NCBI GenBank assembly: GCA_021801525.1
Contig: JAJYXW010000040.1
Coordinates: 1-61,546 of the forward strand
DNA from: Actinomycetes bacterium
Lineage (GTDB): Bacteria; Actinomycetota; Acidimicrobiia; Acidimicrobiales; JAJYXR01
Direction of reading: 5' to 3'
Length of the DNA stretch: 61,546 bases
The position numbers and the translations under genes are program-made. Positions 7,073 through 44,346 of the stretch are shown piece by piece. Numbering within the stretch: the first letter of the stretch is position 1; the number at the start of each line of letters is the position of its first letter. The notes under the pieces are model-generated. The model was given only the letters and a program-made list of their open reading frames with translations. It had not been told where the DNA came from and made no database searches.

Positions 7073-7225
7073 CCGAGCCGACCAGGTGTGGTCAGCCGGT
7101 CACTGCGTGCCCCCACGACGCGGCCCCCGCCGGTCCTCGGCGCCCTGTCATCGAGGGCAACGGGACGAAGCGCCACACCTTGCGGTGGAATGACCATCCC
7201 TGCGCTCCGACGCTCGCAATGAGCC

Positions 7226-9805: not shown

Positions 9806-10991
9806 CGGCGAGCAGCTCGGCTCCCATGTCCTCGCAGAAACGCTCCTCCACGATCCGCCTGCCCAGCTTGCCCATGGCCGACCGCTCCTCGGGCGGACTG
9901 CGCAGCACTGCGGCCAGGGCTCCTGCCAACGCCTCCGGTTCGCCCGGAGGAACGAGCACCCCGCTCCCGGGTTCCACTAGCTCGGGTATTCCGAACGCGT
10001 CGCTCGCCACGACCGGCAGCTCCATCGCCATCGCCTCCTTCAGGACCACTGGCATCGAATCGCGGTCGCCCCACGACGCGATCCTGCAGGGAGCTGCGAG
10101 CACGTCGGCCCCGGCCAAGAGCTCCATGACATCCCCCGGGGAGATGTCCCCGATCAGCTCCACGCTCTCTGTCAGGCCAAGCCTTGCAATCAGCTTTCGG
10201 AGTGGTTCCTCCTCGCTGCCCGAACCTGCTATGCGGCAGCGCACCCCTGGGTCGTGCGTGAGCGAGAGCAGTCCTACGGCCCTCACCAGGACGTCGAAGC
10301 CCTTCTTTTCCTCGAGCCTGCCGACGCCCACGATCACCTTTCCCGGGCGCGCAGGCCGCGGCTCCTCGAGTCGTACTCGGGCTGTATCTACGCCCGCGTA
10401 TTTCACGAGGACGTCGCCGGCAGCAATCCCCGGGCACCTCTCTACGATCTGCTCCACGTTGTAGCGGCACACGGTGACCCTGAGCGCAGCCGAGCCGAGA
10501 ACACGCCGGAGGGTCCCCTGCCTCACGTACAGGTCCGCACCGTGGACGGTGACGCCGAAGGGAACACCGGCAAGGCGCGACGCGAAGTACGCCACCTCCC
10601 CCGCTACGTCGGCGAAATGGGCGTGCAGGTAGCGGATCTCGCGCTTTGCGACCAGGTGCGCCACGACGAGCGCCCTGCCGAGGTCAACCAATGCCAGCCT
10701 GCTCGGATGGCGGGCCACGACTGCCGCGCACGCGAGGCTGCGCCACGGATGGCGGGTGATCGTCGCCAAAACGGCCGCCAGACGCGCCCTCCTGGTGAGT
10801 TCCTCGATCCAGAGCGCGCGATCGACGAGCGCCTGCACGCCCGGATGCTCAACCGAGTCCTCCTGACGCTGACAGGCGATGATGGCCGGGGAGATCCCCC
10901 GGCGCTCCAGAGCCAGGAGCTCTTCCACGATGAACGTCTCCGACAGCTTCGGGAACTTCCAGAGAACATATGCGATCGGCCCGAGCGTCAC
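9771..10991 (-). CDS. glycosyltransferase, GT4-like (WcaL-like N-terminus)
   Basis: IAYVLWKFPKLSETFIVEELLALERRG at the N-terminus. EEKKGFDVLVRAV..PCRIASWGDRDSMPVVLKEAMAMELPVVASDAFGIPELV in the C-terminal half. GTG start. Confidence 0.8.
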   Translation of the reverse strand: MTLGPIAYVLWKFPKLSETFIVEELLALERRGISPAIIACQRQEDSVEHPGVQALVDRALWIEELTRRARLAAVLATITRHPWRSLACAAVVARHPSRLALVDLGRALVVAHLVAKREIRYLHAHFADVAGEVAYFASRLAGVPFGVTVHGADLYVRQGTLRRVLGSAALRVTVCRYNVEQIVERCPGIAAGDVLVKYAGVDTARVRLEEPRPARPGKVIVGVGRLEEKKGFDVLVRAVGLLSLTHDPGVRCRIAGSGSEEEPLRKLIARLGLTESVELIGDISPGDVMELLAGADVLAAPCRIASWGDRDSMPVVLKEAMAMELPVVASDAFGIPELVEPGSGVLVPPGEPEALAGALAAVLRSPPEERSAMGKLGRRIVEERFCEDMGAELLAGAIAGVLGEEP

Positions 10992-12036: not shown

Positions 12037-13539
12037 ATGGCCACGAAGCAGCTTCGTACTGCGTTCTTCCCCATTAGGGAAGCGCTCGCGCGAGCCGCGC
12101 GACATAGCGTACGCGGCATTGCGGCGTCGCTCCTGGCCGGGGGTGTCCTCGTGGCAGTGATGCTGGCAGGTGTCCAGAGCGCGTCGGCGCAGGTGGGATC
12201 GAACCCTTTCTCCACGGACGGCAGCGTGGTGTCGAGCGGGCAGCCAGTCCCGAACGTCCCCGGAACCACCGGCAGCTTCGTCCTCGGCAGCCTCACCAAC
12301 ACTACCGGGTACATATCGCCGGCCGAGAACGCGAGTGGGCAGGTGACGATCGACGAGACAAGCTCCACTTCGTACTACTCGTGTAACTCCGCCGGTAAGA
12401 GCTGCACTGTCTCGAGCGCGGCCAGCGTGGTCGCACCCGGGAACGAGCTGTTCGTGTCCGGCCACTATTTCGTCGAGAACGGCACCTACGAGCTGATCGC
12501 CGAGTATGTCTTCAGCCCGCCGCCGGCATCTTCGACGGCGCCGCCCGCGCCTCCGGCGCCGCAACCCACCGGCTTCTACGACTACATACCGGCCAACGCC
12601 TTCGGCGTCACGGGTTATGTCACGTCACCGGGCACCTACCTCGTCAACCAGCTCCTGTGGAGCCCGCTGTGGGGGTTCACGCTCGGCCACTTCGGGAGGT
12701 TCCCGAACGGCTACGGATGCGGATCTGCGAGCAACTGTACGACTGAGCAGATCGCGCTCTCCAACTCCAACCATCTATTCATCGACGCGACCTCCTTGAC
12801 GACCACGTTCTGGCTGGCCAGCGCCACGGCCACCACTTCGAGCGGCGAGGTTGTGGGCTGCAGCTACAGCCAGAGCACGGACACCTTCGCCGTCATCGAC
12901 TACTACGGATCGAAGGACGGTCTGACCGCCACCGGGAGGTTCCTCTACAGCGGGAACCAGTGGCGCTTCACAGCGTCCAATGTGTTCTCGCCGCCGCCGG
13001 CGCCGCCAAGCGCCTACGCGGCGGGAGGTGTCTGCGCCTCGACTCCCCAGAGGATCGGCCCGGTGAGCGCCTCGTCTCCTGCCGTGTCGGAGTCCTCGCA
13101 TGGAACCGCCCAGCCGGGAGGCACCGGCTACGACAACACGACCTGGCAGGGCACGTTCGGCACAGGGTTCGGGCCCGAGGGCGGGGTCTTCTCGGACGGA
13201 ACGATCCAGCTCACGCTCGACTGGGCACTCGTTCCCGCCGCCGGAAACCTGCCGGAGCACTGGCACTTCTATGGCACCTATACCGCATCCAACCAGTCAG
13301 GGTCGACAACCCTGGCAGGACAGATAAGTGGCTCGGCGGGGGTGGCGTCCACTGGCGCGGGGACCGAGCCTGTCAACGCGACCATGACCATGGACCAGGG
13401 AACCGGCCAGTTCGCCGGATTCAGCGGGTACGGGACCGTCTCCGGTGACGCCGCTTACAGCGCCGGCCAGCCGCTCCCCGTGCTCCAGAGCCTCGACTTC
13501 GTCTGGAACATTCAGTCGACGTCGAGCTCCGGCACGTAG
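12037..13539 (+). CDS. secreted protein of unknown function with internally duplicated segment and Pro-rich linkers
   Basis: RBS GAGAGGAGAG lies upstream of the start. N-terminal TM/signal sequence GIAASLLAGGVLVAVMLAGVQSASAQ. The motif (Y/N)VFSPPPA(S/P).. occurs twice, about 155 aa apart. Confidence 0.6.
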   Translation: MATKQLRTAFFPIREALARAARHSVRGIAASLLAGGVLVAVMLAGVQSASAQVGSNPFSTDGSVVSSGQPVPNVPGTTGSFVLGSLTNTTGYISPAENASGQVTIDETSSTSYYSCNSAGKSCTVSSAASVVAPGNELFVSGHYFVENGTYELIAEYVFSPPPASSTAPPAPPAPQPTGFYDYIPANAFGVTGYVTSPGTYLVNQLLWSPLWGFTLGHFGRFPNGYGCGSASNCTTEQIALSNSNHLFIDATSLTTTFWLASATATTSSGEVVGCSYSQSTDTFAVIDYYGSKDGLTATGRFLYSGNQWRFTASNVFSPPPAPPSAYAAGGVCASTPQRIGPVSASSPAVSESSHGTAQPGGTGYDNTTWQGTFGTGFGPEGGVFSDGTIQLTLDWALVPAAGNLPEHWHFYGTYTASNQSGSTTLAGQISGSAGVASTGAGTEPVNATMTMDQGTGQFAGFSGYGTVSGDAAYSAGQPLPVLQSLDFVWNIQSTSSSGT

Positions 13540-35516: not shown

Positions 35517-35545
35517 TTGCTCGAGTGCGACAGGAACCTCTATTG

Positions 35546-36352
35546 GTGAGCAGAGACAGCGGCCCGGTGGACCTCCGGGGGGTGAGGGTAGTAGTCACCG
35601 GCGCAACCAGCGGGCTCGGCGCCGCGATGGCCGATGCCCTGCTCGAAGCGGGCGCCACCGTTGCGATGGCGGCGCGACCCGGCCCCCGGCTCGACGAAGC
35701 AGTCCGCCGCCGGAGCGCCGCCGGGCTCAGCGCGCAGGCGATGCCACTCGACGTACGCGTCGCGGCCTCCGTGGAAGAAGCAGCTCGGAGCATCCTCGAT
35801 CAATGGGGGGGCGTAGACCTTGTAGTCAACAACGCCGGCATCGGCATGCGGACGGTGAACCCCCGCTTCTTCGACGACCCGCGGCCGTTCTTCGAGGTCT
35901 CACCCGAGGGCTTTGCCGACGTTATTGCCACCAACTTGACCGGCTACTTCCTGGTGGCCCGTGCCTTCGCTACCGCTTTCGTCGAGCAGCGCCAAGGGCG
36001 CTTCGTGAACATCTCCATGAACCACGAGACCATGCGGCGAAGAGGATTCGTTCCCTACGGTCCCTCGCGTGCCGGAGCCGAGGCGCTGAGCCTCATAATG
36101 ACCGCGGATCTGGAACCATACGGGATCACGGTGAACATGCTGCTCCCCGGGGGCGCCACGGACACGGGGATGATCCCCGACACCATGGAGGACGCGACCA
36201 GGCGCTCCCTACTCCGTCCTCAGGTCATGGGACCACCGGTGGTGTTCCTCGCCTCGTCCGAAGCAACAGGCGTCACTGGCGAGCGCATCGTCGCGAAGGA
36301 CTTCGACGCCTGGCTCGCCGCCTTCCGGTCCCGAGCACGAGCCGACGGGTGA
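35546..36352 (+). CDS. SDR-family oxidoreductase
   Basis: The GTG at 35546 gives ..[17 protein letters not shown]..; NNAG motif; classical SDR length. Confidence 0.8.
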
Positions 36353-36405
36353 AGCGCTGAATGACAAATCTTGTCGATCCCAACGGTCACGTCGCCGGCA
36401 AGCCA

Positions 36406-36666
36406 CTACCGGTCATAGACCTCGCGGCGATTTCCAAGAGCCACGACCACGATCAAGAGCACGTCATCGGCAATGGTGTAGATGATGCGGTAGTCGCCTA
36501 CGCGCACCCGGTAACCAGGGCGGCCTCGCAGAGGTCGGGACGCTGGCGGCCTCGGGTCGTCGGCAAGTAACCCGATTACGCCTTGGATACGGGGACGAAC
36601 TACCGGGTCCAGTTCCCGCAGTGCCCGGGCCGCAGCGGGACGCAACTCAATGCGGTAGGTCGTCAC
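36406..36666 (-). CDS. RelE/ParE-family toxin
   Basis: ..RPLRGRPGYRVRVGDYRIIYTIADDVLLIVVVALGNRREVY. GTGA overlap with the upstream antitoxin gene. Confidence 0.85.
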   Translation of the reverse strand: MTTYRIELRPAAARALRELDPVVRPRIQGVIGLLADDPRPPASRPLRGRPGYRVRVGDYRIIYTIADDVLLIVVVALGNRREVYDR

Positions 36667-36911
36667 TTCCAGCCGAGATCGGCCTTCACCTCATCCCAGG
36701 GAATACTGGGACCTTCCTCTGCCATCGCTGCGTCGAAAGCCTGGGCGTCTTCGGCATCCTCGAGCGCCTCGATCAACTCCTCATACCGTTCGGGGCTGAC
36801 CAGCACCGCTGCAGGCCGGCCATAGCGCTCCAGGAACACCGCTTCGGTGTGGGCCGTCTCCACCGCCTCGGAGAGTCGTTCCCGAGCTTCGCTCACTGCC
36901 ATCTTTGCCAT
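36663..36911 (-). CDS. Phd/YefM-family antitoxin
   Basis: ..VSEARERLSEAVETA..EAVFLERYGRPAAVLVSPERYEEL.. Confidence 0.85.
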   Translation of the reverse strand: MAKMAVSEARERLSEAVETAHTEAVFLERYGRPAAVLVSPERYEELIEALEDAEDAQAFDAAMAEEGPSIPWDEVKADLGWK

Positions 36912-36918
36912 GCACTCT

Positions 36919-36947
36919 ATTGTACAAGAGCTCTATGGAGTTGTACA
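36919..36947 (-). promoter_or_regulatory. putative leaderless promoter/operator of the phd-relE module
   Basis: Minus strand: TGTACA-N15-TGTACAAT. The -10-like TACAAT ends 7 nt before the ATG (36911). The two TGTACA palindromes are spaced 21 bp apart. Confidence 0.45.
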
Positions 36948-36995
36948 GATCGCCGGCAAGAATCGTACTGGCGGTTCGCGCACCGGTCCGATGAT

Positions 36996-37049
36996 GGTGC
37001 GAACCTGTAGGTCACGGAGTCGGTGGGCCGTAGGCGCTCGTATTCGAAC
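36996..37049 (+). repeat. degenerate copy (R0) of the inter-cassette repeat, tentative
   Basis: GGTGC..AGGTC..GTGGGC..GCGCT CGTATTCGAAC has the same block order as R2/R3 and the tRNA junction, but is much diverged. Confidence 0.3.
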
Positions 37050-37199
37050 TTCGATGACATGCACCTTCGCGTGACTCGACTTCACTCAGCGGCGTACCTC
37101 CGTTCGTAGGGACGGATGGCCGGCAATGCTTTCTGCGGGGCGGCGGCGAAGCGGGCTGTGTCGCCCCTCTTGACAAACCTGGCTCGTACTGCCATTGTG

Positions 37200-37484
37200 A
37201 TGCCAATGACTACGACGAAGGAAGACCGGCTCCAGATCCGGGTGGAGCCCAAGGCCAAGCGCCTCCTCGAGGAGGCGGCAGCCGCCAGCCACCTGACCGT
37301 CTCGGCATTCGTCCTTCAAGCAGCTGGAATGAGAGCCGACCAGGTGCTCTTGGACCGCGAGACGATCCGACTGAGCCCGCGAGCAGCGGCCACCTTCGCC
37401 AGCGCTCTCGCGGAGCCCGCAACGGTGAATGAACGCCTGGCCAAGGCATTGACTCGACCCCGCGGCTTCACTTGGGCCGATTAA
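37200..37484 (+). CDS. DUF1778 (TacA-like, RHH) antitoxin
   Basis: ..RLQIRVEPKAKRLLEEAAAASHLTVSAFVLQAA.. Confidence 0.8.
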   Translation: MPMTTTKEDRLQIRVEPKAKRLLEEAAAASHLTVSAFVLQAAGMRADQVLLDRETIRLSPRAAATFASALAEPATVNERLAKALTRPRGFTWAD

Positions 37485-37996
37485 AGCTCTGCCGCCCCGA
37501 GCTCCTCGACGTCGATCGGCACGATCGAGGAAGCTTCGCGTCCACCGACGGGGCCATGAACGAGTGGCTGCGCCGGTACGCGAGGCAGAGCCGGCGAGAC
37601 GACACGGCGGCTACCTGGATCATCGCCACGCCCGAGGGTCGGATCGCGGCGTTTGCCTCACTGAGCATGACGGGCATCGACCGGTCCGAAGCCCCTGCGA
37701 GTCTTGGGAAGGGATCACCCAATCCGGTTCCGGGACTGCTCATTGGGCGGTTGGCGGTCGACCAGGACTTCGAGGGCCGGGGCGTCGGAACCGCCCTCGT
37801 GCAGCATGCCCTGGCCTTGGCCGTCGGGCTGAACATCTCTGCCGCCTGCAAGGCAGTCGTTGTCGTGGCGCTCAATGCCGAGGCCAAGGCTTGGTGGCTA
37901 CGTCTCGGCTTTCACTGCTTCGATGAAGAGGACGACGACTGCTTCGACCTATTCCTCCTGACGGCCGAAATCGAAGAGACGTTCGGTGCAACGTGA
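37472..37996 (+). CDS. GNAT-family acetyltransferase toxin (TacT-like)
   Basis: 13-nt overlap with the DUF1778 gene. ..LIGRLAVDQDFEGRGVGTALVQHAL.. acetyl-CoA-binding motif. Confidence 0.8.
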   Translation: MGRLKLCRPELLDVDRHDRGSFASTDGAMNEWLRRYARQSRRDDTAATWIIATPEGRIAAFASLSMTGIDRSEAPASLGKGSPNPVPGLLIGRLAVDQDFEGRGVGTALVQHALALAVGLNISAACKAVVVVALNAEAKAWWLRLGFHCFDEEDDDCFDLFLLTAEIEETFGAT

Positions 37997-38018
37997 GAGC
38001 GGTGTGGTTGTGGCGGGC

Positions 38019-38053
38019 GGGTTCTGGTGGACCTTGGGTCACACAATACGAGC
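38019..38053 (+). repeat. inter-cassette repeat R1 (core TGGGTCACACAATACGAGC at 38035-38053)
   Basis: The core is shared with R2 and R3. A looser shared tail extends to about 38100. Confidence 0.7.
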
Positions 38054-38144
38054 CGCTCCCCGATCATCGAGGGTCCGGTCGTCGGCCTCGAGCCGGCGGT
38101 CGGTACGCACGCCGCTCACTCGCGAGGTCCAACCTTCACCATAA

Positions 38145-38166
38145 GTAGCACTACTCATGCTACAAT
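38145..38166 (+). promoter_or_regulatory. putative leaderless promoter/operator of phd-vapC module 1
   Basis: Palindrome GTAGCA-N7-TGCTAC overlaps TACAAT (38161-38166), 6 nt before the ATG at 38173. Confidence 0.45.
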
Positions 38167-38172
38167 CACTCC

Positions 38173-38451
38173 ATGACGAGGATCGGCGTACGAGAGTTGC
38201 GCCAGCACGCGAGCCGTTACCTTGAGCAGGTGAAGGCCGGGGAAGTCGTCGAGGTCACCGAGCGGGGAACACTCGTCGCCCTGCTGGTGTCCCCCACTCC
38301 GGCCGTGGCCGAGCGGGACCGCCTAATTGCGTCCGGTCGGCTCGTGCCGGCGAAGAGCGCATTCCGCCTGCCAGAGCGCCGTCATGCCGCCCGTGGAGAG
38401 CAGACCGCGTCTGAAGTCCTAGCTGAGCTCCGCCGGGACCGAATTGCGTGA
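38173..38451 (+). CDS. Phd/YefM-family antitoxin
   Basis: MTRIGVRELRQHASRYLEQVKAGEVVEVTERGTLVALLVSP. Confidence 0.8.
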   Translation: MTRIGVRELRQHASRYLEQVKAGEVVEVTERGTLVALLVSPTPAVAERDRLIASGRLVPAKSAFRLPERRHAARGEQTASEVLAELRRDRIA

Positions 38452-38840
38452 TCTACTTCGACACGTCCGCGCTCGTGAAACTGGTGTTCGAAGAGGCCGA
38501 GAGCTCCGCCTTGGCGGCGTGGCTGACCGAGAGAGCAGACGTTCCCAAAATCAGTAGCGACCTGTCGATGGTTGAACTGCTCCGTACGTGCCGGCGAATC
38601 GACGAGGAGGCGGTCAGGGACGCAGCGCTGCTTCTTGGGGGGATCGACCTTCTTCCCATCGATCGTCCCATCGTCGAACGGGCTGCAACCCTCTTCCCGC
38701 ACGAGCTCCGGATCCTTGACGCGATCCACCTGGCAAGTGCGTTGTCGGTGAGGGCGGATCTGACCACCTTTGTCGTCTACGACAGCCGACTCCGCTCGGC
38801 CGCGACGGAAGCAGGCATCGACGTGGAGTCGCCCGCCTGA
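38448..38840 (+). CDS. vapC: PIN-domain toxin VapC
   Basis: GTGA overlap. IYFDTSALVKL.. plus downstream acidic residues (..DAIHLASAL..). Confidence 0.85.
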   Translation: MIYFDTSALVKLVFEEAESSALAAWLTERADVPKISSDLSMVELLRTCRRIDEEAVRDAALLLGGIDLLPIDRPIVERAATLFPHELRILDAIHLASALSVRADLTTFVVYDSRLRSAATEAGIDVESPA

Positions 38841-38964
38841 TCCGGCTCCTGGCCGGCGAACCACGCCTGTTCCATGGAACTCGGCGGGAACGACCGACGC
38901 ACCACGCTCAGAACCTTCCGTCGAACCGGATCTGGCCCACGCGAATGACGACTGGGTGGCAACA

Positions 38965-39012
38965 GGTTCGTGCAGGTCGAATTTGTGGGCGCTGGTTCAC
39001 ACAATACGAACC
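38965..39012 (+). repeat. inter-cassette repeat R2
   Basis: GTGCAGGTC (38970-38978), GTGGGCGCTG (38985-38994), GGTTCACACAATACGAACC (38994-39012). The tail extends to about 39052. Confidence 0.8.
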
Positions 39013-39113
39013 TCTCTCCGGTGGTTGCCGGATCGCTCATCGACCTTGGCTAAGGGCATCATTTGCCGTAGAACAGCTACACGGTATTGCGGAATGCCTG
39101 CTATGCTGCGTCC

Positions 39114-39401
39114 ATGGCAGACGATCAGACGTTCGTCACTGTGCAAGGCCGGGGTCTCATCGCCATCCCGACCGCCATCCGGCGCCACTTCGGTTTGGAC
39201 CAGCCCGGAGCGCAGCTCGAGGTCATCGAGCGAGAAGGAGAGATCGTGCTGCGCCCACACGTTGCAGTGCCAGCCGACCAGGCGTGGTTCTGGACCGAGC
39301 GCTGGCAGCAGATGGAACGCGAGGCTGACGACGCCATCGCCGCAGGGCAAATCATGACCGTCGAAGGTCTCGAGGAGCTCTTGGCCGACCTCGACTCGTG
39401 A
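39114..39401 (+). CDS. AbrB/MazE/SpoVT-type antitoxin
   Basis: MADDQTFVTVQGRGLIAIPTAIRRHFGL..GAQLEVIEREGEIVLRP. Confidence 0.7.
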   Translation: MADDQTFVTVQGRGLIAIPTAIRRHFGLDQPGAQLEVIEREGEIVLRPHVAVPADQAWFWTERWQQMEREADDAIAAGQIMTVEGLEELLADLDS

Positions 39402-39724
39402 GGTTCGAGCGGACCGAACCATTCAAGGCTGACTACCAGCGACTGTCCGAGGACGAACGCGAGAAGTTCCGCACCGCGGCCCGTGCCTTCAACGCGGCCT
39501 GTGATCACTTCGTCGAGACCAAGGACCCGTCGTCATGGCCAGGCAACCTGCGGGTCAAGGCGGTCGCGAGCGCTCCGGGTATCTTCGAAATGACTTGGAA
39601 CTTCAGCGGGCCTGACGGCCGAGCCACCTGGGAGTGGGTCACGGTCATCGACACTGATGGACGCCATTGGCCGGCGGTGCGCTGGCGCAGACTGGGAGCT
39701 CACCGGATCTTTCGCGAACCATGA
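39398..39724 (+). CDS. putative RelE/ParE-superfamily toxin
   Basis: GTGA overlap with the AbrB-like gene. ..GNLRVKAVASAPGIFEMTWNFSGPDGRATWEW.. resembles RelE-fold toxins. The family assignment is tentative. Confidence 0.5.
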   Translation: MRFERTEPFKADYQRLSEDEREKFRTAARAFNAACDHFVETKDPSSWPGNLRVKAVASAPGIFEMTWNFSGPDGRATWEWVTVIDTDGRHWPAVRWRRLGAHRIFREP

Positions 39725-39835
39725 CCGCCCCAGCCACTCGTCGTGACCTCGATGGCGTTCCGCGAACGCAGACTCACCCCGGTGCCCTCCGGTTCGTATG
39801 GCGTGAACCATGCTCCGCGTTGTTGCTGCTCAGGG

Positions 39836-39879
39836 GTGCCAGTCTACGTGTGTGGGCGCTGGGTCACACAATACGAACT
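39836..39879 (+). repeat. inter-cassette repeat R3
   Basis: GTGCCAGTC (39836-39844), GTGGGCGCTG (39852-39861), GGGTCACACAATACGAACT (39861-39879). The tail extends to about 39918. An inverted imperfect copy of the core lies at 39791-39809. Confidence 0.8.
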
Positions 39880-39965
39880 GTGCCCCCACGATCGCCGGCC
39901 CCAACATCGACCTCGGCTGACAGGGCGACGGGGGCGTTCGATCAGTCTGAGGCCACCCAGAGACT

Positions 39966-39996
39966 CGTAGCTGATCGTAGCTCTGTATGCTACAGT
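39966..39996 (+). promoter_or_regulatory. putative leaderless promoter/operator of phd-vapC module 2
   Basis: CGTAGCT occurs twice (39966, 39976). The GTAGC-N7-GCTAC palindrome overlaps TACAGT (39991-39996), 6 nt before the ATG at 40003. The layout parallels 38145-38166. Confidence 0.45.
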
Positions 39997-40002
39997 CATC
40001 TC

Positions 40003-40251
40003 ATGACAAAGACCATCGCGCAGCGTGAGCTGCGGAACGACAACGCCAAGGTGATCGAGGCCGTCGCCGCTGGCGAGAGCTTCGTCGTCACTCGCAATGG
40101 CGTGCCCGTGGCAGAACTACGTCCGATCCAGCAGACGCGCCGGACCTTTGTGCCTACGGCTGAGCTTCTGGTGCTCGCCGCCACCGGGCCACGGGTCGAC
40201 CGAAAACGATTCAGAGCGGATCTCGACCGGGTCGTCGACCAAGGCCTGTAG
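40003..40251 (+). CDS. Phd/YefM-family antitoxin
   Basis: MTKTIAQRELRNDNAKVIEAVAAGESFVVTRNGVPVAELRP. Confidence 0.8.
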   Translation: MTKTIAQRELRNDNAKVIEAVAAGESFVVTRNGVPVAELRPIQQTRRTFVPTAELLVLAATGPRVDRKRFRADLDRVVDQGL

Positions 40252-40647
40252 ATGCCAACGGGCCTACTCGACACCTCGGTTGTCATTGACTGGGACGATC
40301 CGACGGTTGCTGCTGCCCTTCCAGAAGAGGTCGCTGTGTGTGCGATCACCCTCGCCGAGCTGGCTGCTGGGCCACACCTCGCTACCTCCAGTTCCGAGGG
40401 CGCACGCCGTCAGGCTCGTCTCCAACAGGTAGAGGCGGCCTTCGAGCCACTTCCCTTCGATGCCACCGCGGCTCGGAGCTACGGACAGATCGTGGCCGCC
40501 GTCGCAGAGACGGGTCGGTCACATCGACGGCGCGTTGCCGGCCTGCTCATCGCCGCCACCGCGCACGCCAACGGCTTGGCGCTCTACACCCGAAATCCCG
40601 ACGACTTCGCCGGGCTTAGCGATCTCGTCCACGTCGTCGGCATCTGA
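40252..40647 (+). CDS. vapC: PIN-domain toxin VapC
   Basis: The start codon immediately follows the antitoxin TAG. LLDTSVVID..; ..LLIAATAHANGLALYTRNPDDF. Confidence 0.85.
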   Translation: MPTGLLDTSVVIDWDDPTVAAALPEEVAVCAITLAELAAGPHLATSSSEGARRQARLQQVEAAFEPLPFDATAARSYGQIVAAVAETGRSHRRRVAGLLIAATAHANGLALYTRNPDDFAGLSDLVHVVGI

Positions 40648-40735
40648 CCGCCGAACGGTCACCCCTCTGGTGGAGGAGTACGCGGTTCGCGCAGCGTTCC
40701 GATCACCGACGCGAAGGTGCAGGTCAGGATCCTCG

Positions 40736-40809
40736 TGGGCGCTGCCGGACTCGAACCGACGGCCTGCTGGTTGTAAGCCAGCTGCTCTGACCAACTGAGC
40801 TAAGCGCCC
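40736..40809 (-). tRNA. tRNA-Val (anticodon TAC)
   Basis: Manual cloverleaf: GGGCGCT-TA-GCTC-AGTTGGTCA-GAGC-A-GCTGG-CTTACAA-CCAGC-AGGCC-GTCGG-TTCGAGT-CCGGC-AGCGCCC-A. 74 nt. CCA is not encoded. Confidence 0.9.
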
Positions 40810-40956
40810 GATCTGTGGCTCCTTCTCGGCTGACCATCTTTGCACCAGGTGGCCCCGCGCACCCACGAGCTAGCCTGAGAGAGCCCCGAGAGTCGCGCGC
40901 ACACGCCTGAGCCGGGCAGCTTTCGCCACGCACCCTCCTTCCGCTAGACCAGCACC

Positions 40957-43155
40957 GTGACGACAGGGCGGAACGATCGAGGACGAGCAGCGAGGCCGGG
41001 CCCAGCGGGGCCGGCACACGGCCCCCGGCGCGCCAAGAGCTCCAGGCGGCATCGCTCCCTTCGCTACCGGCGAATCCGCTCGCTCGGGTTCCTCACCGCA
41101 CTCGTCGCCGGCGTGCTCGTCGCTCTCCTGCTCAGCTCAGGCGGGCCGCCTGCCACCGGGCACCGTGCCACAGAATCCCGCCCCCGTGCGATATCCACAG
41201 GTGAATCCAACGTCGGCGCCTCGGGCATACCTGCCGCTGAGTCCGGGCAGCTCCCCTGGTCGCTGCCCAACCCCATCAGCCGCCTGACGCTGCTCCCAGG
41301 TCCGGCTCCCAACCAGCTCGTCATCCTCGGAGGCCTACTGCCTTCGGGCAGCTCTGCGAGCGGTGTCTACACGCTCGGCACAGCAAATGGGCGCCTGACT
41401 TGGGTCGCGAACCTCAGCGCACCGTCGCACGACGCCTCCGGGGTCGCCCTGGCAGGAACGGACATCCTCTTCGGCGGCGGTAACGCCTCTGGATCGGTGG
41501 CGACAGTCCAGTCGCTCCCCGCCGCCGCTTACCCGGCCACGAACCCGACGGCAACCCGGCCGGGGCTCACAGCTCGAGTGACGGGTCAGCTGCCGCAGCT
41601 TCGGTCGGACTCGTCTTCCCTCGTCATGGGTTCCACCGCATACGTGATCGGCGGCTACAACGGCACCACGGGCGACCGCTCCGTACTGGCTATCGACTTG
41701 GCGAGCACAAGCCCGAGCACCAGCGGCATGAGCTTCCGCACCGTGGCGACCCTGCCTGTCGCCGTCCGCTACGCGGGCGTTGCCGCGCTCGGCGGGAAGA
41801 TCCTCGTATTCGGAGGACTCGGCGTGAGCGGGCCTGACGCCGGCAAGCCGATAGCGAGCATCCAGGAGGTGGACCCGGCGACCGGAAAGGCGAGCATCGT
41901 GGGCACCCTCCCGGAACCCCTCTACGGGGCAGCCGCAGCCAACCTTGGCGGCGTCGTGTACCTGGCCGGTGGGATGACCGGCGCCAGTGGCGCGACCGGA
42001 TCGGGCTTGCATCCCGTCGCGACGATTTGGGCGTACGACCCCTCCACCCGCCAAGTGCTTCGCGCCGGGCAGCTTCGCGTACCCGTAGCCCACGCGGGCG
42101 CAGCGGTCATCGGCAACCGGATGTGGCTGATCGGGGGCAAGTCAACCGGTGGGACCGCGGTTGCAGCAGCGCAGATGGTCGAGCCCAACCGCACCTTCGG
42201 AACCGCAGGCGCACCCGGGGCAGGATCGCCATACTTCGGCGAGAAGCTGCTCGTGGCCGACGAGGGCAACAACCGCCTCCTCCTGCTGTCCGACACCTCC
42301 AGGATCCTATGGACCTACCCTTCGCAAAGCGCGCCTGCTCCCCCCGGGGGATTTAGCGCGGACGACGCCTTCTTCGCTCGCCACGGCACCATGATCGTCA
42401 CCAACGAGGAGACCAAGGACGTCCTCGCGGAGGTCGCGTACCCCTCGGGGAAGATCCTCTGGACCTACGGTCACTTCGGCGTGCGCGGCAGCGCGCCCGG
42501 TTATCTCAATACCCCCGACGACGCGTACCTCCTGCCCGACGGCAACGTCGTGACAGCGGACATCGCCAACTGCCGAGTAATCGTGATTGATCCCAAGACC
42601 GACCAGATCGTCACCCAGATCGGCACGACGGGCCGCTGCATCCACGACATGGACAAGCCCATAGCGCTCGGTTCACCGAACGGTGACACACCGCTCCCGA
42701 ACGGCAACATCCTCGTTTCGGAGATAAACGGCTCCTACGTGGACGAGTTCACCCCTCAGGGCAAGCCGCTCTGGTCGGTCCACCTTCCGATCTCCTACCC
42801 TTCAGACCCCCAGCAGATCGGGCCGAACCGCTACCTCATCGCCGGCTACACCAAGCCCGGCAGCCTGCTCGAGTTCAACCGCCAGGGCCAGGTGCTGTTC
42901 CGATACCAGCCGACTTCGGGACCTGGCATGCTCGACCACCCGTCGCTCGTCGAGATGCTCCCGAACGGGATACTGATGTTGAACGACGACCACAACGACC
43001 GCATGATCGCCATCGACCCGGCAACCGGCGCACTCGTGTGGCAGTACGGCGTCACCCATACTCCGGGCATCGCGCCCGGGATGCTGAACGAGCCCGACGG
43101 GTTCGACATCCTTGCACCGGGAGGGCTGACCCCGACCCACACCGGCACCGGCTGA
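40957..43155 (+). CDS. membrane-anchored/secreted protein with two predicted beta-propeller regions (Kelch-like, then ASST/NHL-like), unknown function
   Basis: N-terminal TM LGFLTALVAGVLVALLL. Repeated ..(F/I/A)GG.. blades (ILFGGGN, YVIGGYNGT, LVFGGLG, YLAGGMTG, WLIGGKS). These are followed by ..LLVADEGNNRLLLL.., ..VTADIANCRVIVID.., ..MLNDDHNDRMIAID... Non-ATG start. Confidence 0.55.
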   Translation: MTTGRNDRGRAARPGPAGPAHGPRRAKSSRRHRSLRYRRIRSLGFLTALVAGVLVALLLSSGGPPATGHRATESRPRAISTGESNVGASGIPAAESGQLPWSLPNPISRLTLLPGPAPNQLVILGGLLPSGSSASGVYTLGTANGRLTWVANLSAPSHDASGVALAGTDILFGGGNASGSVATVQSLPAAAYPATNPTATRPGLTARVTGQLPQLRSDSSSLVMGSTAYVIGGYNGTTGDRSVLAIDLASTSPSTSGMSFRTVATLPVAVRYAGVAALGGKILVFGGLGVSGPDAGKPIASIQEVDPATGKASIVGTLPEPLYGAAAANLGGVVYLAGGMTGASGATGSGLHPVATIWAYDPSTRQVLRAGQLRVPVAHAGAAVIGNRMWLIGGKSTGGTAVAAAQMVEPNRTFGTAGAPGAGSPYFGEKLLVADEGNNRLLLLSDTSRILWTYPSQSAPAPPGGFSADDAFFARHGTMIVTNEETKDVLAEVAYPSGKILWTYGHFGVRGSAPGYLNTPDDAYLLPDGNVVTADIANCRVIVIDPKTDQIVTQIGTTGRCIHDMDKPIALGSPNGDTPLPNGNILVSEINGSYVDEFTPQGKPLWSVHLPISYPSDPQQIGPNRYLIAGYTKPGSLLEFNRQGQVLFRYQPTSGPGMLDHPSLVEMLPNGILMLNDDHNDRMIAIDPATGALVWQYGVTHTPGIAPGMLNEPDGFDILAPGGLTPTHTGTG

Positions 43156-43181
43156 CAGCACTGTTGGGCAGATCACCCTGG

Positions 43182-43226
43182 CTCCTACCACCAACGGCTC
43201 CTGCCACCAACGGCTCCTGCCAGCCA
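43182..43226. repeat. 16-bp tandem repeat, about 2.8 copies (CTCCT(A/G)CCACCAACGG), in a convergent intergenic region
   Basis: Read directly between the stop at 43155 and the dapE stop at 43270. Confidence 0.85.
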
Positions 43227-43269
43227 TCCTGGCTGCAACCTAGGAGCATCTGCGGATCTGCCTGGGTGG

Positions 43270-44346
43270 TTATGCGGAGATCAGCGCCGCCAGCACCCCG
43301 CGGGCCTCGGCGAGCTCCGCTTCGCTCACGTGCTCGTCCGGAGAATGCGCAAGCGAAGGGTCGCCAGGCCCGAAGTTGGCTGCTGGCACGCCTGCGGCGA
43401 AGAACGTCGCCACGTCAGTCCAACCGACCTTGGCCTCAGGAGGGCGACCGGTGGCCCCGACGAGCTTCGCTATCAGCGGGTGGCGGAGAAAGGGCGGCGC
43501 GCCAGGCGCGATGTCCAGGACCTCCACTCTGTCGCCGATTACTTCGTCGAGCACAGGGGAAAGCAGGCGGCGCAACTCGGCTTCGGCCTCAGCTTCGGAG
43601 CGGTCCGGCGCGAAGCGATAGTTCAGGGTGAGCTCTGCCTCTCCGGGCACGACGTTACCTGCCACTCCCCCCTCGACGCGCACTGCCTGGAGCTGATCGG
43701 CATACTCGCAGCCGTCGAGCTCCACCCTGCGTGAGTCGTAGGACCCGAGCAGCGCGAGCAGGGGGGCCATGCGGTGGATGGCGTTCGTGCCCATCCAAGG
43801 GCGTGCAGTGTGCGCCGGACGCCCGCTGAGCCTCACGCGAGCACGCATTGTGCCCTGGCACCCGGCCTGCACGACTCCGCCTGTCGGCTCACAGAGCACG
43901 GCTGCGTCCGCGGCGATCACCTCGGGGCTCTCCACGGCGATGCGGCCGAGAGCGTTCTCGGAATGGTCGATCTCCTCGCAGGCGTAGAACACGTAGGTGA
44001 GGTCCACGACCGGCTCCTCAACAGTGCGCGCCAGGTCCAAGAGGACCGCTATGCCACCCTTCATGTCGACCGAGCCCACGCCCCAGAGTGTGCCCTCCTC
44101 CACTCGTGCGCGCTCGTTGCCGGCGGGACGCACGGTGTCCATATGGCCGGCCAAACAGACTCTCTCAGCACGGCCGAGCCCCGTCCGTGCCACCACTGAG
44201 TCACCCACTCTCAGCACGTCCAGATGTGAGCACGAGCGCAGGTCCGCCTCGAGGATCCCGGCCAGCCGGCCCTCCTTCCGGCTCTGCGAGGGGATGTCCA
44301 CGAGGGCAGCCGCCAAGTCGAACAGGTCATCGGGCAGCTCCTTCAC
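43270..44346 (-). CDS. dapE: succinyl-diaminopimelate desuccinylase (M20 peptidase)
   Basis: ..LVDIPSQSRKEG..LAGHMDTV..GSVDMKGG..; actinobacterial DapE layout; GTG start. Confidence 0.85.
   Translation of the reverse strand: MKELPDDLFDLAAALVDIPSQSRKEGRLAGILEADLRSCSHLDVLRVGDSVVARTGLGRAERVCLAGHMDTVRPAGNERARVEEGTLWGVGSVDMKGGIAVLLDLARTVEEPVVDLTYVFYACEEIDHSENALGRIAVESPEVIAADAAVLCEPTGGVVQAGCQGTMRARVRLSGRPAHTARPWMGTNAIHRMAPLLALLGSYDSRRVELDGCEYADQLQAVRVEGGVAGNVVPGEAELTLNYRFAPDRSEAEAEAELRRLLSPVLDEVIGDRVEVLDIAPGAPPFLRHPLIAKLVGATGRPPEAKVGWTDVATFFAAGVPAANFGPGDPSLAHSPDEHVSEAELAEARGVLAALISA

Follow-up and report, generated by a model that had tools for sequence, protein, structure and literature searches.

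A stack of toxin-antitoxin cassettes beside tRNA-Val in an actinobacterial genome, probably derived from a large serine recombinase element and mobilised in trans

Five toxin-antitoxin (TA) modules lie side by side at a tRNA-Val gene in this Actinomycetes genome, and the locus raises the question of what the repeats between them are and how the modules came to be stacked there. We analyzed the whole stretch of 61,546 nucleotides (the window). Pfam, ARAGORN, Rfam and gene calls agreed that 36406-40647 consists of five TA modules of two genes each, the last of which stops 88 nt short of tRNA-Val(tac) (Table 1), and independent gene calls on conspecific contigs gave the same ten genes and none besides. 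An earlier, sequence-only reading had listed these five modules as RelE/ParE+Phd, DUF1778+GNAT, Phd+VapC, AbrB-like+RelE-like and Phd+VapC; its "RelE-like" label for the 108-aa partner of AbrB is unverified because that protein had no family match in Pfam, NCBIfam or PDB.

Table 1. Features of the TA array and the adjoining tRNA gene in window coordinates (LSR, large serine recombinase).
Feature	Position	Strand	Evidence
Cassette 1, truncated 5' head	36353..36405	+	Alignment with L033, L014, L001, L052, L043; blastn
Cassette 1 cargo: ParE toxin 36406-36666, Phd/YefM antitoxin 36663-36911	36406..36911	-	Pfam
Cassette 1 tail (class B left arm), starts GCGGTTCGCGCACCGGTCCGAT	36971..37020	+	Repeat with 40682-40703, 91%; alignment; LSR 3' ends
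Variant (degenerate) junction site GGTGGGCCGTAGGCGCTCGTATTCGAAC	37021..37049	+	Homologous variant in L008, ~2700-2730
Cassette 2 cargo: TacA antitoxin 37200-37484, GNAT (TacT-like) toxin 37472/37556-37996	37200..37996	+	Pfam; gene calls
Site 1: GTGG-ACCT + core TGGGTCACACAATACGAGCC	38027..38054	+	Core search
Cassette 3 cargo: Phd antitoxin 38173-38451, PIN (VapC) toxin 38448-38840	38173..38840	+	Pfam
Site 2: complete 48-bp imperfect palindrome GGTTCGTGCA-N10-GTGG-GCGC-TGGTTCACACAATACGAACC	38965..39012	+	
Cassette 4 head, coding in core frame: GSHNTN-LSPVVAGSLIDLG-stop (TAA 39051-39053)	38994..39053	+	
Cassette 4 cargo: AbrB-family antitoxin 39114-39401, 108-aa unclassified putative toxin 39398-39724	39114..39724	+	TIGR01439 above cutoff (antitoxin)
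Inverted core copy, 2 mismatches, in cassette 4 tail	39792..39810	-	Core search; inverted repeat analysis
Site 3: GTGG-GCGC + core TGGGTCACACAATACGAACT	39852..39879	+	
Cassette 5 head, coding in core frame: GSHNTN-CAPTIAGPNIDLG-stop (TGA 39918-39920)	39861..39920	+	
Cassette 5 cargo: Phd antitoxin 40003-40251, PIN (VapC) toxin 40252-40647	40003..40647	+	Pfam
Cassette 5 tail (class B left arm): GCGGTTCGCGCAGCGTTCCGAT...GTGCAGGTCAGGATCCTC	40682..40734	+	
tRNA-Val(tac)	40735/6-40809	-	ARAGORN; Rfam 73.9 bits

The 19-nt core of the repeat, TGGKTCACACAATACGARC, occurs exactly on the plus strand at 38035, 38993 and 39860, in front of modules 3 to 5 as previously listed, apart from a shift of one position in the second copy, and once more, with 2 mismatches, as an inverted copy at 39792-39810 that the earlier list had missed and that stands in as a remote, left-arm-like counterpart to site 3. 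The rest of the 61.5-kb window held no further core match with up to 3 mismatches; the chance expectation was 0.01, and 4 matches were reached in 0 of 100 shuffles. An extended 68-nt repeat family was confirmed in the window. Two similarities to the tRNA end that had been pointed out before were also confirmed: GTGGGCGCTG has exactly three occurrences (38985, 39852 and 40735, against 0.56 on average and at most 3 in shuffled sequences), and to the left of these GTGCAGGTC is present at 38970 and 40717 and GTGCCAGTC at 39836. The degenerate look-alike noted before module 2 is equal in length to GTGG plus core, has the same variant sequence in the L008 homologue, and its first 12 nt are the tRNA-Val(gac) 3' end in L016.

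The site is not confined to this genome. We collected 52 unique core sites from the window and loci L001-L053, and the conserved form, (GGTTCGYGCA-N10-)GTGG-NNNN-TGGGTCACACAATACGAACC, was found about 50 times, counting unique copies only, in metagenomes and Acidimicrobiia-like MAGs, where it separates cassettes of 0.7-1.8 kb, almost all carrying type II TA genes, that are stacked at tRNA-Val or tRNA-Ala 3' ends. In these arrays the core lies on one strand and is followed 0.7-1.6 kb further on by a convergent tRNA-Val(tac), Val(cac), Val(gac) or Ala(ggc) gene that the array abuts. It is not the generic REP-like element that had been named as a counter-explanation: it is absent from the remainder of the window, and at other loci it lies in cassette arrays whose assignable genes are of TA type, several of them beside tRNA genes. 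Of the cassettes, 21 are closed; they span 671-4626 bp, with a median near 880 bp. In a set of 133 non-redundant six-frame ORFs taken from the small cassettes, Pfam identified Phd (10), RHH (5), PIN (4), ParE (4), Fic/Doc (1), DUF433 (1) and DUF7387 (1), that is, TA-type families only, barring one domain of unknown function, and the cargo was TA only wherever a family was assignable. A cassette consists of a head that begins in or just after the core, one TA operon apparently driven by a separate promoter, a tail with the left arm GGTTCGYGCA, and the junction.

Highly similar strains differ precisely in these units. Contigs that are 99.5-99.9% identical differed by whole cassettes: in conspecific contig L236, window positions 39012-39850, exactly cassette 4, are missing and the join lies inside the repeat, forming a hybrid whose left part comes from site 2 and whose right part comes from site 3, and in L219 different cassettes lie to the left of site 1. 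The presence/absence comparison of single modules that the sequence-only reading had proposed was therefore positive, single modules are the units that vary, and its suggestion that the repeats are cassette-associated recombination sites was supported. Near-identical cassettes were also found at different tRNA genes and in genomes that have diverged from one another, a distribution that requires transfer and site-specific capture. A contig binned to MAG WH5.bin15 has cassette 5 at 98.4% identity followed by another core, not a tRNA; on another contig of this MAG, the Kelch-repeat gene is just 76% identical to that of the window.

It is very improbable that the repeat is instead a regulatory element or small gene of TA operons (a 20-aa micro-ORF, insulator or terminator); strain differences break exactly at the repeat. 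Such a role would agree with its position in the window, always 100-130 nt ahead of the antitoxin start, and with the coding-type conservation and fixed stop of the head: in the core frame the first stop is at codon 18 or 19 in 24 of about 50 sites, with no peak in the other two frames, and the codon-position entropies are 0.94, 0.78 and 1.15, the pattern of a head that is, or was, coding. However, the repeat lies upstream of cassettes with genes on either strand (those of cassette 1 relatives are on the opposite strand), had no Rfam match, shows no consistent start codon or upstream ORF in TA cassettes, and is continuous in frame with large serine recombinase (LSR) ORFs in three loci.

A possibility of more weight, although we consider it unlikely, is that the repeats are remnants of past integrations and that cassettes are gained, lost and reshuffled today by homologous recombination or replication slippage between conserved 28-70-bp repeats without a dedicated recombinase. 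The presence or absence of cassette 4 is the one recent event that can be mapped, and its exchange point, between core positions 4 and 20 inside TCACACAATACGAA, may lie at any point in the 15 bp that are identical between the copies of the 28-nt direct repeat, as a homology-driven deletion would give. Apparent break points differ from comparison to comparison, many sites lack the left arm, the distal site of the window is deleted and no recombinase is nearby, all of which fit this explanation. Against it, 28 bp is very short for RecA-dependent exchange, near-identical cassettes recur across divergent genomes and different tRNA genes, and the spacing to the outer inverted motifs is fixed. In addition, the core is essentially invariant in about 50 sites, synonymous positions included, while the flanking heads diverge freely, which indicates selection on the DNA sequence itself.

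Which enzyme would use such a site? The sequence-only reading had proposed that single modules were added stepwise at tRNA-Val, leaving decayed attachment-site copies, and that the recombinase would act in trans or the array is a fossil. If the enzyme were a tyrosine integrase, the repeats would be decayed tRNA 3' ends (att core) whose overlap region of 6-8 bp lies around GTGGNNNN. We regard this as improbable. Sites 2 and 3 do share GTGGGCGCTG with the tRNA, rare tetramers after GTGG match tRNA acceptor ends (GCGC Val, AGGT Ala(cgc), GGGT Leu(taa)), some junctions show 12-nt tRNA-end stutters, and tRNA 3' ends are described as classic tyrosine-integrase targets in one source (PMC4383910); in L215 a different element has inserted into the anticodon loop of this tRNA. 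However, the repeats do not derive by decay from the attachment site of this tRNA: the identity to the tRNA extends over just 4-10 bp, and the core is not tRNA-derived, being element-specific and the same at different tRNAs. GTGG, which is at a fixed offset before the core in 47/52 sites, is the only part common to core sites and tRNAs generally; a complete match to GTGGGCGCTG belongs to a lineage-specific variant present in 4/52 sites, the usual forms being GTGGACCT and GTGGGCCT. No inverted core-type binding sites flank GTGGNNNN directly, the symmetry residing in outer motifs 24 bp away, and a Pfam sample and a box-II motif search detected no tyrosine recombinase gene in cassettes, array loci or the window.

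The same palindromic symmetry could suggest attC-like sites that fold as single strands and are used by an integron-type integrase, with an attI-like site at the tRNA. Cassette arrays with TA cargo are reported for chromosomal integrons (PMC13108822), the site is an imperfect palindrome, and the mapped exchange leaves most of the core with the cassette on the left. We nevertheless give this very little credence, as the likeness fails on structure: single-strand folds are weak (z-scores -0.1 to -2.3, terminal stem of 5-9 bp only), and sequence rather than structure is conserved. Integron sites have the polarity R''(..AAC)...R'(GTT..), and the order found here, GTTCG...CGAAC, is the opposite. 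Moreover, the cassettes appear to have their own promoters, and no IntI-like gene was seen.

In contrast, an LSR system is a better analogue. LSR genes adjoin tRNA 3' ends in at least 10 loci; full-length 511-aa LSRs have Resolvase, Recombinase and Zn_ribbon_recom domains and, in L020-L031, end convergently inside tRNA-Val, tRNA-Ala or tRNA-Leu 3' ends, and the tRNA-antisense peptide G[LFIV]EP forms the C-terminal end in 86/115 homologues. The last LSR codons, AVRAPSRSV, are GCGGTTCGCGCACCGTCCCGGTCGGTG, which is the left arm of the cassette tails; GCGGTTCGCGCACCGGTCCGAT at the start of the cassette 1 tail is similar to them. In three defective LSR genes (L003, L041 and L253/P0041) the reading frame runs across GTGG and the core and ends at the conserved stop, and we read the head of cassette 4 as the remnant of a recombinase C-terminal tail. 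The geometry of the sites points the same way. The acceptor 3' strand and T-arm of tRNA-Val(tac) (GTGG-GCGCTGCCGGACTCGAACC, plus strand) form a 19-bp tRNA-side half-site, a length found in 11/11 junctions, and the core half is 24 bp long. The left arm measures 24 bp within TA cassettes and 26 bp beside LSR genes. Between cassettes the sites total 48/50 bp; at tRNAs, where the tRNA-side half is shorter by 5 bp, the total is 43/45 bp. These lengths match published LSR architecture, in which attP is about 50 bp and the zinc-ribbon-domain motif is shifted 5 bp inward in attB (PMC3783163).

Several observations weigh against the LSR reading. An LSR would cut at the palindrome centre (GTGG), and the mapped L236 exchange does not lie there; 32/52 sites have no recognisable left arm, and the three LSR-core fusions are all defective, no intact LSR having been found adjacent to a core. 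The four bases after GTGG assort independently from both flanks, and the rare TGGTTC variant accompanies tail 3 into three different contexts of the head. Likewise, in conspecific contigs no LSR was found up to 8 kb from the array, and the distal (P') ends of intact LSR elements have no exact core. Canonical LSRs without a directionality factor do not recombine an attP-like site with an attR-like or another attP-like site (PMC3783163).

Altogether, we favor, with a probability of roughly 0.6, the interpretation that small integrative cassettes, themselves non-autonomous, have been stacked to form the array, and that they derive by deletion from an LSR element and are mobilised in trans. The parent element would encode an LSR, have an attachment site overlapping the 3' end of the recombinase gene, and target the acceptor/T-arm end of tRNA-Val, tRNA-Ala and tRNA-Leu genes. 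As had been noted before, no recombinase gene was found within the 61.5-kb window, so any enzyme acts in trans; an LSR supplied in this way may recombine a cassette site with the tRNA-proximal site, and new units would thus be added next to the tRNA while older ones are shifted outward and decay, the TA cargo presumably making the loss of each unit hard. Cassette 1, at the outer end, directly follows the stop codon (36350-36352) of the adjoining short-chain dehydrogenase gene and lacks the core and ~38 nt of head that precede this cassette in other genomes; its homologue in L001 (81-82% identical) directly adjoins tRNA-Val(tac), and that in L014, an 807-nt locus without a tRNA, has a core in front. 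With this distal site deleted, the left arm of site 1 degenerate, site 2 the only canonical site and no recombinase within 61 kb, the array in the window looks partly fossil. If it is a stack of trans-mobilised, non-autonomous LSR-element derivatives, it would be comparable to SCC composite islands.

To the left of the tRNA-Val 3' end, the window holds ten small genes that form five pairs. Pfam directly assigned four of them (ParE/Phd on the minus strand, TacA/GNAT, Phd/PIN, and a second Phd/PIN pair). Module 4 had been described in the sequence-only reading as AbrB-like plus RelE-like; its antitoxin does belong to the AbrB family (TIGR01439, above cutoff), and the RelE-like label is unverified because the 108-aa partner at 39398-39724 has no match in Pfam, NCBIfam, or PDB. 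Altogether, 9 of the 10 proteins match toxin-antitoxin (TA) families (Pfam; AbrB by TIGR01439), and the array consists of type II TA modules, module 4 being assigned by its organisation alone. Independent gene calls on conspecific contigs gave the same ten genes only, between a short-chain dehydrogenase gene and the tRNA. The five modules, the tRNA-Val, and the core repeats were all recovered (ARAGORN, Rfam, Pfam, and a core search), and the short motifs reported earlier lie where they had been placed. The 19-nt conserved repeat (the core) occurs in three exact copies (sites 1-3) and one inverted copy with two mismatches (Table), and no further copy with up to 3 mismatches was found in the 61.5 kb (chance expectation 0.01). 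An Rfam scan of 36000-41500 returned only the tRNA and its antisense artefact, which rules out the repeat as a known RNA. In the window, cassette 1 lacks the core and ~38 nt of the head (the cassette start in or just after the core), its homology beginning directly after the dehydrogenase stop codon, and the distal end of the array is truncated.

Several smaller features accompany the array. TAnnnT-type -10 boxes lie 7-8 nt upstream of the antitoxin ATG in modules 3, 4, and 5, too close for a Shine-Dalgarno sequence to fit in between. Each TA operon appears to have a promoter of its own and to give a leaderless transcript. There is also an 18-nt inverted repeat with 94% complementarity (Table). 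At the start of cassette 2, immediately to the right of the variant site, a segment of the class B tail, ACGCGAAGGTGCAGGTCA, lies inverted; an inversion, or a unit inserted the opposite way round, may have left it there. In a synteny scan of relatives at up to 80% amino-acid identity, the Kelch-repeat gene found right of the window tRNA had no adjoining tRNA.

Coordinates of features in the window and at loci or contigs elsewhere (L-numbers)
Feature	Sequence	Position	Strand	Remark
tRNA-Val(tac)	window	40735/6-40809	minus	ARAGORN, Rfam
Exact core, sites 1-3	window	38035, 38993, 39860		
Inverted core, two mismatches	window	39792-39810		
Site segments				outer GGTTCG/CGAACC; GTGG; ACACAATAC segment; 24/19-bp spacing
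Left arm GCGGTTCGCGCACCGTCCCGGTCGGTG	window	36971-36992, 40682-40703		
-10 box TACAAT	window	38150-38175		module 3
-10 box TATGCT	window	39095-39116		module 4
-10 box TACAGT	window	39985-40005		module 5
18-nt inverted repeat	window	37055-37072 vs 40709-40726		
Recombinase-tail tblastn match	window	12153-12206		chance match
tRNA-Val(tac) beside array	L001, L042			
tRNA-Val(cac) beside array	L009, L047			
tRNA-Val(gac) beside array	L016			
tRNA-Ala(ggc) beside array	L004			
Multi-core arrays	L006, L008, L010, L013, L016, L035, L039, L042-L045, L050, L051			
135-aa/85-aa gene pair	L002	1524-2185	-	
135-aa/85-aa gene pair	L016	1185-1846	+	
135-aa/85-aa gene pair	L219	433-1094	+	
Defective recombinase-core fusion	L003			decayed
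Defective recombinase-core fusion	L041			remnant
Defective recombinase-core fusion	L253			database protein P0041, 475 aa, without catalytic N-terminus
Stutters (GTGGGCGCTGAG)n	L006	~7200-7250, ~7920-7964		
Stutters (GTGGGCGCTGAG)n	L037	~115-175		
Stutters (GTGGGCGCTGAG)n	L018	~1905-1935		
Stutters (GTGGGCGCTGAG)n	L045	~10540-10580		
Stutters (GTGGGCGCTGAG)n	L039	~150-180		
Left homology boundary	L024	~1090-1140		
Left homology boundary	L025	~990-1040		
Intact recombinase at tRNA-Val(tac)	OY969891 (L021)	~1,839,100		
Core	OY969891 (L018)	~1,881,900		
Broken tRNA-Val(tac)	L215	8484-8530		window 40735-40777
Insertion in VapC3 gene	L245	from 6967		window 38522

The exact core was found at 18 loci in MAGs of Acidimicrobiales or "Actinomycetes" and on 22 metagenome contigs, giving 52 unique core sites once duplicates were removed. 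GTGG stands at a fixed offset before the core in 47 of these sites. The four bases that follow it are ACCT in 26 sites, GCCT in 10, GCGC in 4, AGGT in 3, and ACCC in 3, with six other variants found once each; they assort independently of both flanks and, in the rare variants, copy tRNA acceptor ends. Three exact-pattern matches without GTGG and the usual context (L005, L034, and L053) are probably chance matches. A loose core pattern, GGNNNNACACAATAMGAACC, gave 118 matches in genome contigs, mostly by chance in unrelated phyla, and one plausible extra site (L113). IMG/VR viral contigs had no match to the core and gave no evidence of a phage form. The sequence-only reading had named a generic REP-like repeat as the explanation that would undo its own. 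The core is not a dispersed element of the REP/MITE type: it is absent from the other 57 kb of the window, occurs exactly once in the complete 5-Mb chromosome OY969891, and elsewhere lies in cassette arrays. Two points of that reading did not hold. The motif GTGGGCGCTG, equated with the tRNA end, is a minority variant of a general GTGG-NNNN-T junction and is limited to the window species and MAG WH5.bin15. The repeats are also not true copies of the tRNA 3' end, since identity amounts to GTGG plus 0-6 nt and the core, which has no relation to the tRNA sequence, is the same at four tRNAs.

To see how the array varies among strains, we looked up the window proteins in public assemblies, which gave many contigs 99.5-99.99% identical to the window over 6-10 kb. 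Most of them carry the same five modules and two differ, so that single modules are indeed present or absent between strains, as the sequence-only reading had proposed to check. The first (L236, GCA_054609735.1) aligns to window 35535-39011 and 39851-44000, and because these two alignments overlap by 28 nt, corresponding to the repeat, it lacks exactly cassette 4. The second (L219, GCA_028065315.1) matches the window from 38023 on, where site 1 has its left edge; before this point it carries a different cassette, encoding a 135-aa/85-aa pair, preceded by a core variant and a further cassette. Another contig of the same assembly (L246) has the window-type arrangement up to site 1, so both arrangements co-occur in this sample. 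Cassette 5 is found with 98.4% identity on L013, a short contig binned to MAG WH5.bin15, where it is followed by a core and a ParE/Phd cassette and not by a tRNA. At the DNA level, a Kelch-repeat gene on L054, another contig of this bin, shares only 76% identity with the copy in the window, and this difference points to a recent transfer of cassette 5; mis-binning of the short L013 contig is the alternative. Relatives of cassette 1 (81-82% identical) lie directly at tRNA-Val(tac) on L001 and, with a core before the cassette, on the short locus L014. We put the probability at roughly nine in ten that the array consists of mobile cassettes, each delimited by a dedicated recombination site.

Two further conspecific contigs carry insertions in the same region. 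On L215 (ERZ27237177), tRNA-Val(tac) is broken at the anticodon loop, where identity to the window gives way to unrelated DNA with an ORF called at 1180 aa; this looks like a second, different integrative element on the same tRNA. On L245, an insertion within VapC3, the gene of the module-3 PIN toxin, encodes a 321-aa protein with HTH_7, HTH_23, HTH_28, and HTH_29 domains that looks like a transposase.

In other genomes, where a tRNA is present, the geometry is that of the window, with the core on one strand and a convergent tRNA 0.7-1.6 kb downstream, and several loci carry two to four cores in direct orientation (Table). Closed units, counted from a core to the next core or tRNA, measured 671-4626 bp with a median of ~880 bp (n = 21). 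We scanned 133 non-redundant six-frame ORFs from the small units of these genomes with Pfam and found PhdYeFM (10), PIN (4), RHH_1 (3), ParE (3), RHH_5 (2), and ParE-like, Fic/Doc, DUF433, and DUF7387 (1 each). All are TA-type families, bar one domain of unknown function. Larger units contain Fic/Doc, hydrolase, and TetR genes. The 135-aa/85-aa gene pair recurs as a cassette at three loci (Table), on L002 directly upstream of a recombinase remnant; it has no Pfam or NCBIfam match and could be a novel TA pair or a recombinase accessory factor.

The sites between cassettes are imperfect palindromes of 48 or 50 bp that end in GGTTCG and CGAACC, and the tRNA junctions measure 43 or 45 bp. In cores, CGAACC ends 24 bp beyond the end of GTGG; at the tRNA junctions this distance is 19 bp (11 of 11). 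The distance from GGTTCG to the end of GTGG is 24 bp in TA-type tails (cassette ends with the left arm) and 26 bp beside genes of large serine recombinases (LSRs). The attP half-sites of LSRs span ~25 bp, and the zinc-ribbon-domain motif of attB lies 5 bp closer to the centre (PMC3783163). The geometry of the array sites matches this architecture of an attP of ~50 bp and an attB of ~40 bp. A folded, attC-like hairpin of the integron type was rejected, because the single-strand folds of six sites are weak (-7 to -17 kcal/mol, z-scores -0.1 to -2.3). Translated in the frame T-GGG TCA CAC AAT ACG AAC, all sites give GSHNTN, then x-x-P-x-(I/V)-x-G-P-x-(I/V/F)-x-L-x, before a stop is reached. The first stop falls at codon 18 or 19 in 24 of ~50 sites, with no such peak in the other two frames, and codon-position entropy is 0.94, 0.78, and 1.15, the third position being the most variable. 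The head appears to be, or to have been, coding. The core itself shows no synonymous variation, which argues for a constraint at the DNA level.

The locus L002 links the cassettes to an LSR, as its core-bounded cassette is followed by an N-terminally truncated LSR with Recombinase and zinc-ribbon domains. With this fragment as query we obtained 13 related loci, 6 of them with a full-length LSR (511 aa in five cases; the sixth was called at 527 aa). All six begin with VRIATYTRISTDE, and the one scanned (L025) contains Resolvase, Recombinase, and Zn_ribbon_recom domains. Convergent with tRNA-Val(tac/cac/gac), tRNA-Ala(ggc/cgc), or tRNA-Leu(taa), the LSR ORFs reach into the 3' end of the tRNA gene and close with ..AVRAPSRSVGxxGLEPxT, whose GLEP residues come from the T-loop read on its antisense strand. 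In all, 2003 database proteins belong to the family at E of 1e-50 or better; a C-terminal G[LFIV]EP is present in 86 of the 115 full-length homologues examined (among P0010-P0129), and the clade sits at tRNA-Val, tRNA-Ala, and tRNA-Leu in the loci examined (L020-L031). The DNA for AVRAPSRSV is also the left arm of cassette tails, including two in the window (Table). In ten further sites, the initial GGTTCGYGCA (10 nt) of this arm is placed exactly 24 nt ahead of the GTGG end, and because the reading frame differs there, the left arm is conserved as DNA and not as protein.

Three defective LSR genes (Table) stay open in frame across the left arm, GTGG, and the core, and terminate at the conserved stop in the head of the following cassette. 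Remnants of LSR genes occur in the arrays of L003, L019, and the stitched contig L008+L030. A protein search for an LSR C-terminus joined to a core-type tail returned only nine short LSR remnants, all with tRNA-antisense peptide ends, and a search with the full-length LSR gave a single core-type tail, that of P0041. Intact LSRs adjoin tRNAs and those beside cores are broken, as insertion next to the tRNA followed by outward decay would predict; no intact LSR was found beside a core. As the sequence-only reading had held, the window contains no recombinase (LSR tblastn and box-II motif search; one LSR-tail match is a chance match inside a coding region), and none was found in the gene calls within 8 kb on either side in conspecific contigs.

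A search upstream of the intact LSRs for the distal (P') end of their elements met no core within 6 kb. Two LSR elements of ~5.8 kb (L024 and L025) share a left homology boundary with a motif that is related only (GTAGGACCT.. / GCAGGGCC..). This boundary (GCAGGGCCC.. / GTAGGACCT..) resembles GTGGACCT, and if it were joined to the LSR 3' end, the ORF would run ~9 codons more to an in-frame TGA in both elements; it may perhaps be the P' end of a different LSR subfamily. On OY969891, a core lies ~43 kb downstream of an intact LSR, in matching orientation, and is preceded by a 14-nt copy of the 3' end of the tRNA-Val(tac) that this LSR adjoins. Possibly, a large accreted island extends from the tRNA as far as this core.

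The position of the exchange bears on which process moves the cassettes. The hybrid site of L236 reads tail3-GTGGGCGC-TGGTTCACACAATACGAACT-head5 and combines the T of site 2 at core position 4 with the T of site 3 at position 20, so the exchange took place inside TCACACAATACGAA and not at GTGG. It is the only recent exchange mapped, and it falls within core positions 4-20, at least 12 bp right of the palindrome centre. For this event, a cut at the centre of the 48-bp palindrome (GTGG) is contradicted by the hybrid site, and the crossover was not at the fixed central dinucleotide of an LSR, possibly because homology drove it instead. The rare TGGTTC variant moves with tail 3 into three head contexts (window, L008, and L236), and the CGAGCC and AACT variants move with their heads. 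Core-by-core events may be homology-driven, through 27/28-bp repeats 867 bp apart; alternatively, the acting enzyme may cross over within the core. At the tRNA junctions, however, the exchange must have fallen at GTGG(GC) or to its left. We place little trust in any specific crossover position. At some junctions, tandem 12-nt stutters lie between the left arm and the core (Table). Each unit reads as the final 12 nt of tRNA-Val(tac) in reverse complement, and we could derive no consistent scheme that produces them from a single fixed LSR crossover. The off-centre exchange, the independent assortment of the four bases after GTGG, the stutters, and the lack of an intact LSR next to a core all count against an LSR. 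On balance, we still lean towards this LSR clade as the enzyme.

If an LSR of this clade does act, its gene would span its own attachment site, and the integration state would rewrite its C-terminus. Beside a tRNA, the antisense strand would supply a tail of the form ..GxxGLEPPT..; in the circular or in-array state, the head of a cassette would supply a different one, GSHNTN..xPxIxGPxIxLx-stop. Such a tail swap could provide built-in control of directionality and permit recombination between attP-like and attR-like sites. Canonical serine integrases do not recombine attP-like with attR-like or attP-like sites unless a directionality factor is present (PMC3783163). The TA cassettes would have kept the head and left-arm remnants as internal-deletion derivatives of an LSR element, and intermediate deletion forms are found on L002/L019, L016, L219, and the stitched contig L008+L030. 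The complete scheme, which we regard as doubtful, would be an integron-like cassette-capture platform of Actinomycetota driven by an LSR, with the tRNA 3' end as its "attI", TA cassettes carrying an attP-like site, and the tail swap.

If confirmed, this system would account for the spread and build-up of single TA operons (addiction or defence) in Actinomycetota, and it would be a third cassette platform beside integrons (tyrosine integrase, folded attC) and SCC (Ccr, rlmH). The LSR clade, with ~2000 proteins, appears to target the universally conserved T-arm/acceptor end of tRNAs, and its ORFs terminate inside the tRNA; tRNA targeting is normally attributed to tyrosine integrases. With attB sites that are short, conserved, and tRNA-borne, such recombinases are potentially useful for genome engineering, and a C-terminus that changes with the integration state is a testable regulatory idea. 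For annotation, the 28-nt junction (GTGG-NNNN plus core) is a simple marker to delimit cassettes in Acidimicrobiia MAGs. Within an incomplete coverage of the literature, we found no published description of TA mini-cassettes bounded by LSR-type sites at tRNA genes, of this tRNA-targeting LSR clade, or of the core sequence.

Known targets of phage-type LSRs are mostly protein-coding genes rather than tRNAs. The att sites of phage LSRs (A118/LI, phiC31, and Bxb1) share with the array an attP-like length of ~50 bp, imperfect dyad symmetry, and, on the host side, a half-site reduced by 5 bp in which the same outer motif lies further in (PMC3783163; measured here for the array). The recombinase gene lies beside attP in the phage systems and, at loci related to the array but not in the window, beside tRNA junctions or, in defective form, cores. 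However, canonical phage LSRs accept only an attP-attB pair, so that no attP-like site is left within an array, whereas the array here has such sites, and its one mapped exchange is off-centre.

Small discrete modules bounded by short sites are also found in the pdif modules of Acinetobacter plasmids, which are XerC/D-dependent, often carry TA or resistance genes, and are shuffled between replicons by a recombinase encoded elsewhere. In contrast to the array, these modules use 28-bp XerC/XerD sites in alternating orientation, reside on plasmids, and have no tRNA anchor; no dif-like sequence is present in the array. Among tRNA-linked islands, CIMEs next to ICEs are non-autonomous derivatives flanked by att sites. 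Tycheposons of Prochlorococcus accrete in tandem at one tRNA, with older elements pushed outward and with degenerate integrases and partial att copies scattered in the islands (bioRxiv 10.1101/2020.12.28.424599). Such islands mostly rely on tyrosine integrases, their repeats are true partial tRNA copies, and their elements span kb to tens of kb with replication or cargo modules, whereas the array has an element-specific repeat and minimal TA cassettes. The true copies of the tRNA 3' segment, typically 15-60 bp, that flank each element in tRNA-targeting tyrosine-integrase islands are not found in the array.

Integrons resemble the array in their single-function cassettes, the imperfect palindrome that separates them, and cassette-level strain variation. 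However, the array has no IntI tyrosine integrase, attI, or Pc promoter, it is anchored at a tRNA gene, its sites are conserved in sequence (nearly invariant over ~50 sites) and not in folded structure as attC is, and its cassettes appear to have their own promoters. To our knowledge, integrons have not been described in Actinomycetota. TA modules are frequent cargo of sedentary chromosomal integrons, too (PMC13108822).

Of the known systems, the SCC composite island comes nearest to the array. Its tandem ccr-less cassettes at the rlmH 3' end are moved by Ccr large serine recombinases; a neighbouring element provides the enzyme in trans, and the units that lack one are excised and form circles (PMC11470126). 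SCC/SCCmec and the array share integration at the 3' end of a conserved gene, tandem units split by repeated att-type sequences, a cargo enriched in defence or addiction genes, and, as a probable feature of the array, the involvement of LSRs. Tandem units with the same att sequence lie at one target in the window (sites 1-3 and the tRNA junction, with no recombinase) and in the multi-core arrays elsewhere (Table), LSR remnants being present in some arrays, as would be expected of an SCC-like composite island. The array differs in its phylum (Actinomycetota, Acidimicrobiia-like), in a mobilisation that is predicted from sequence, and in a related recombinase ORF that extends across its own att site and terminates within the tRNA. 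In addition, the target is the 3' end of several tRNA species instead of rlmH, and the units of ~0.7-1 kb hold one TA operon, compared with 5-60 kb in SCC.
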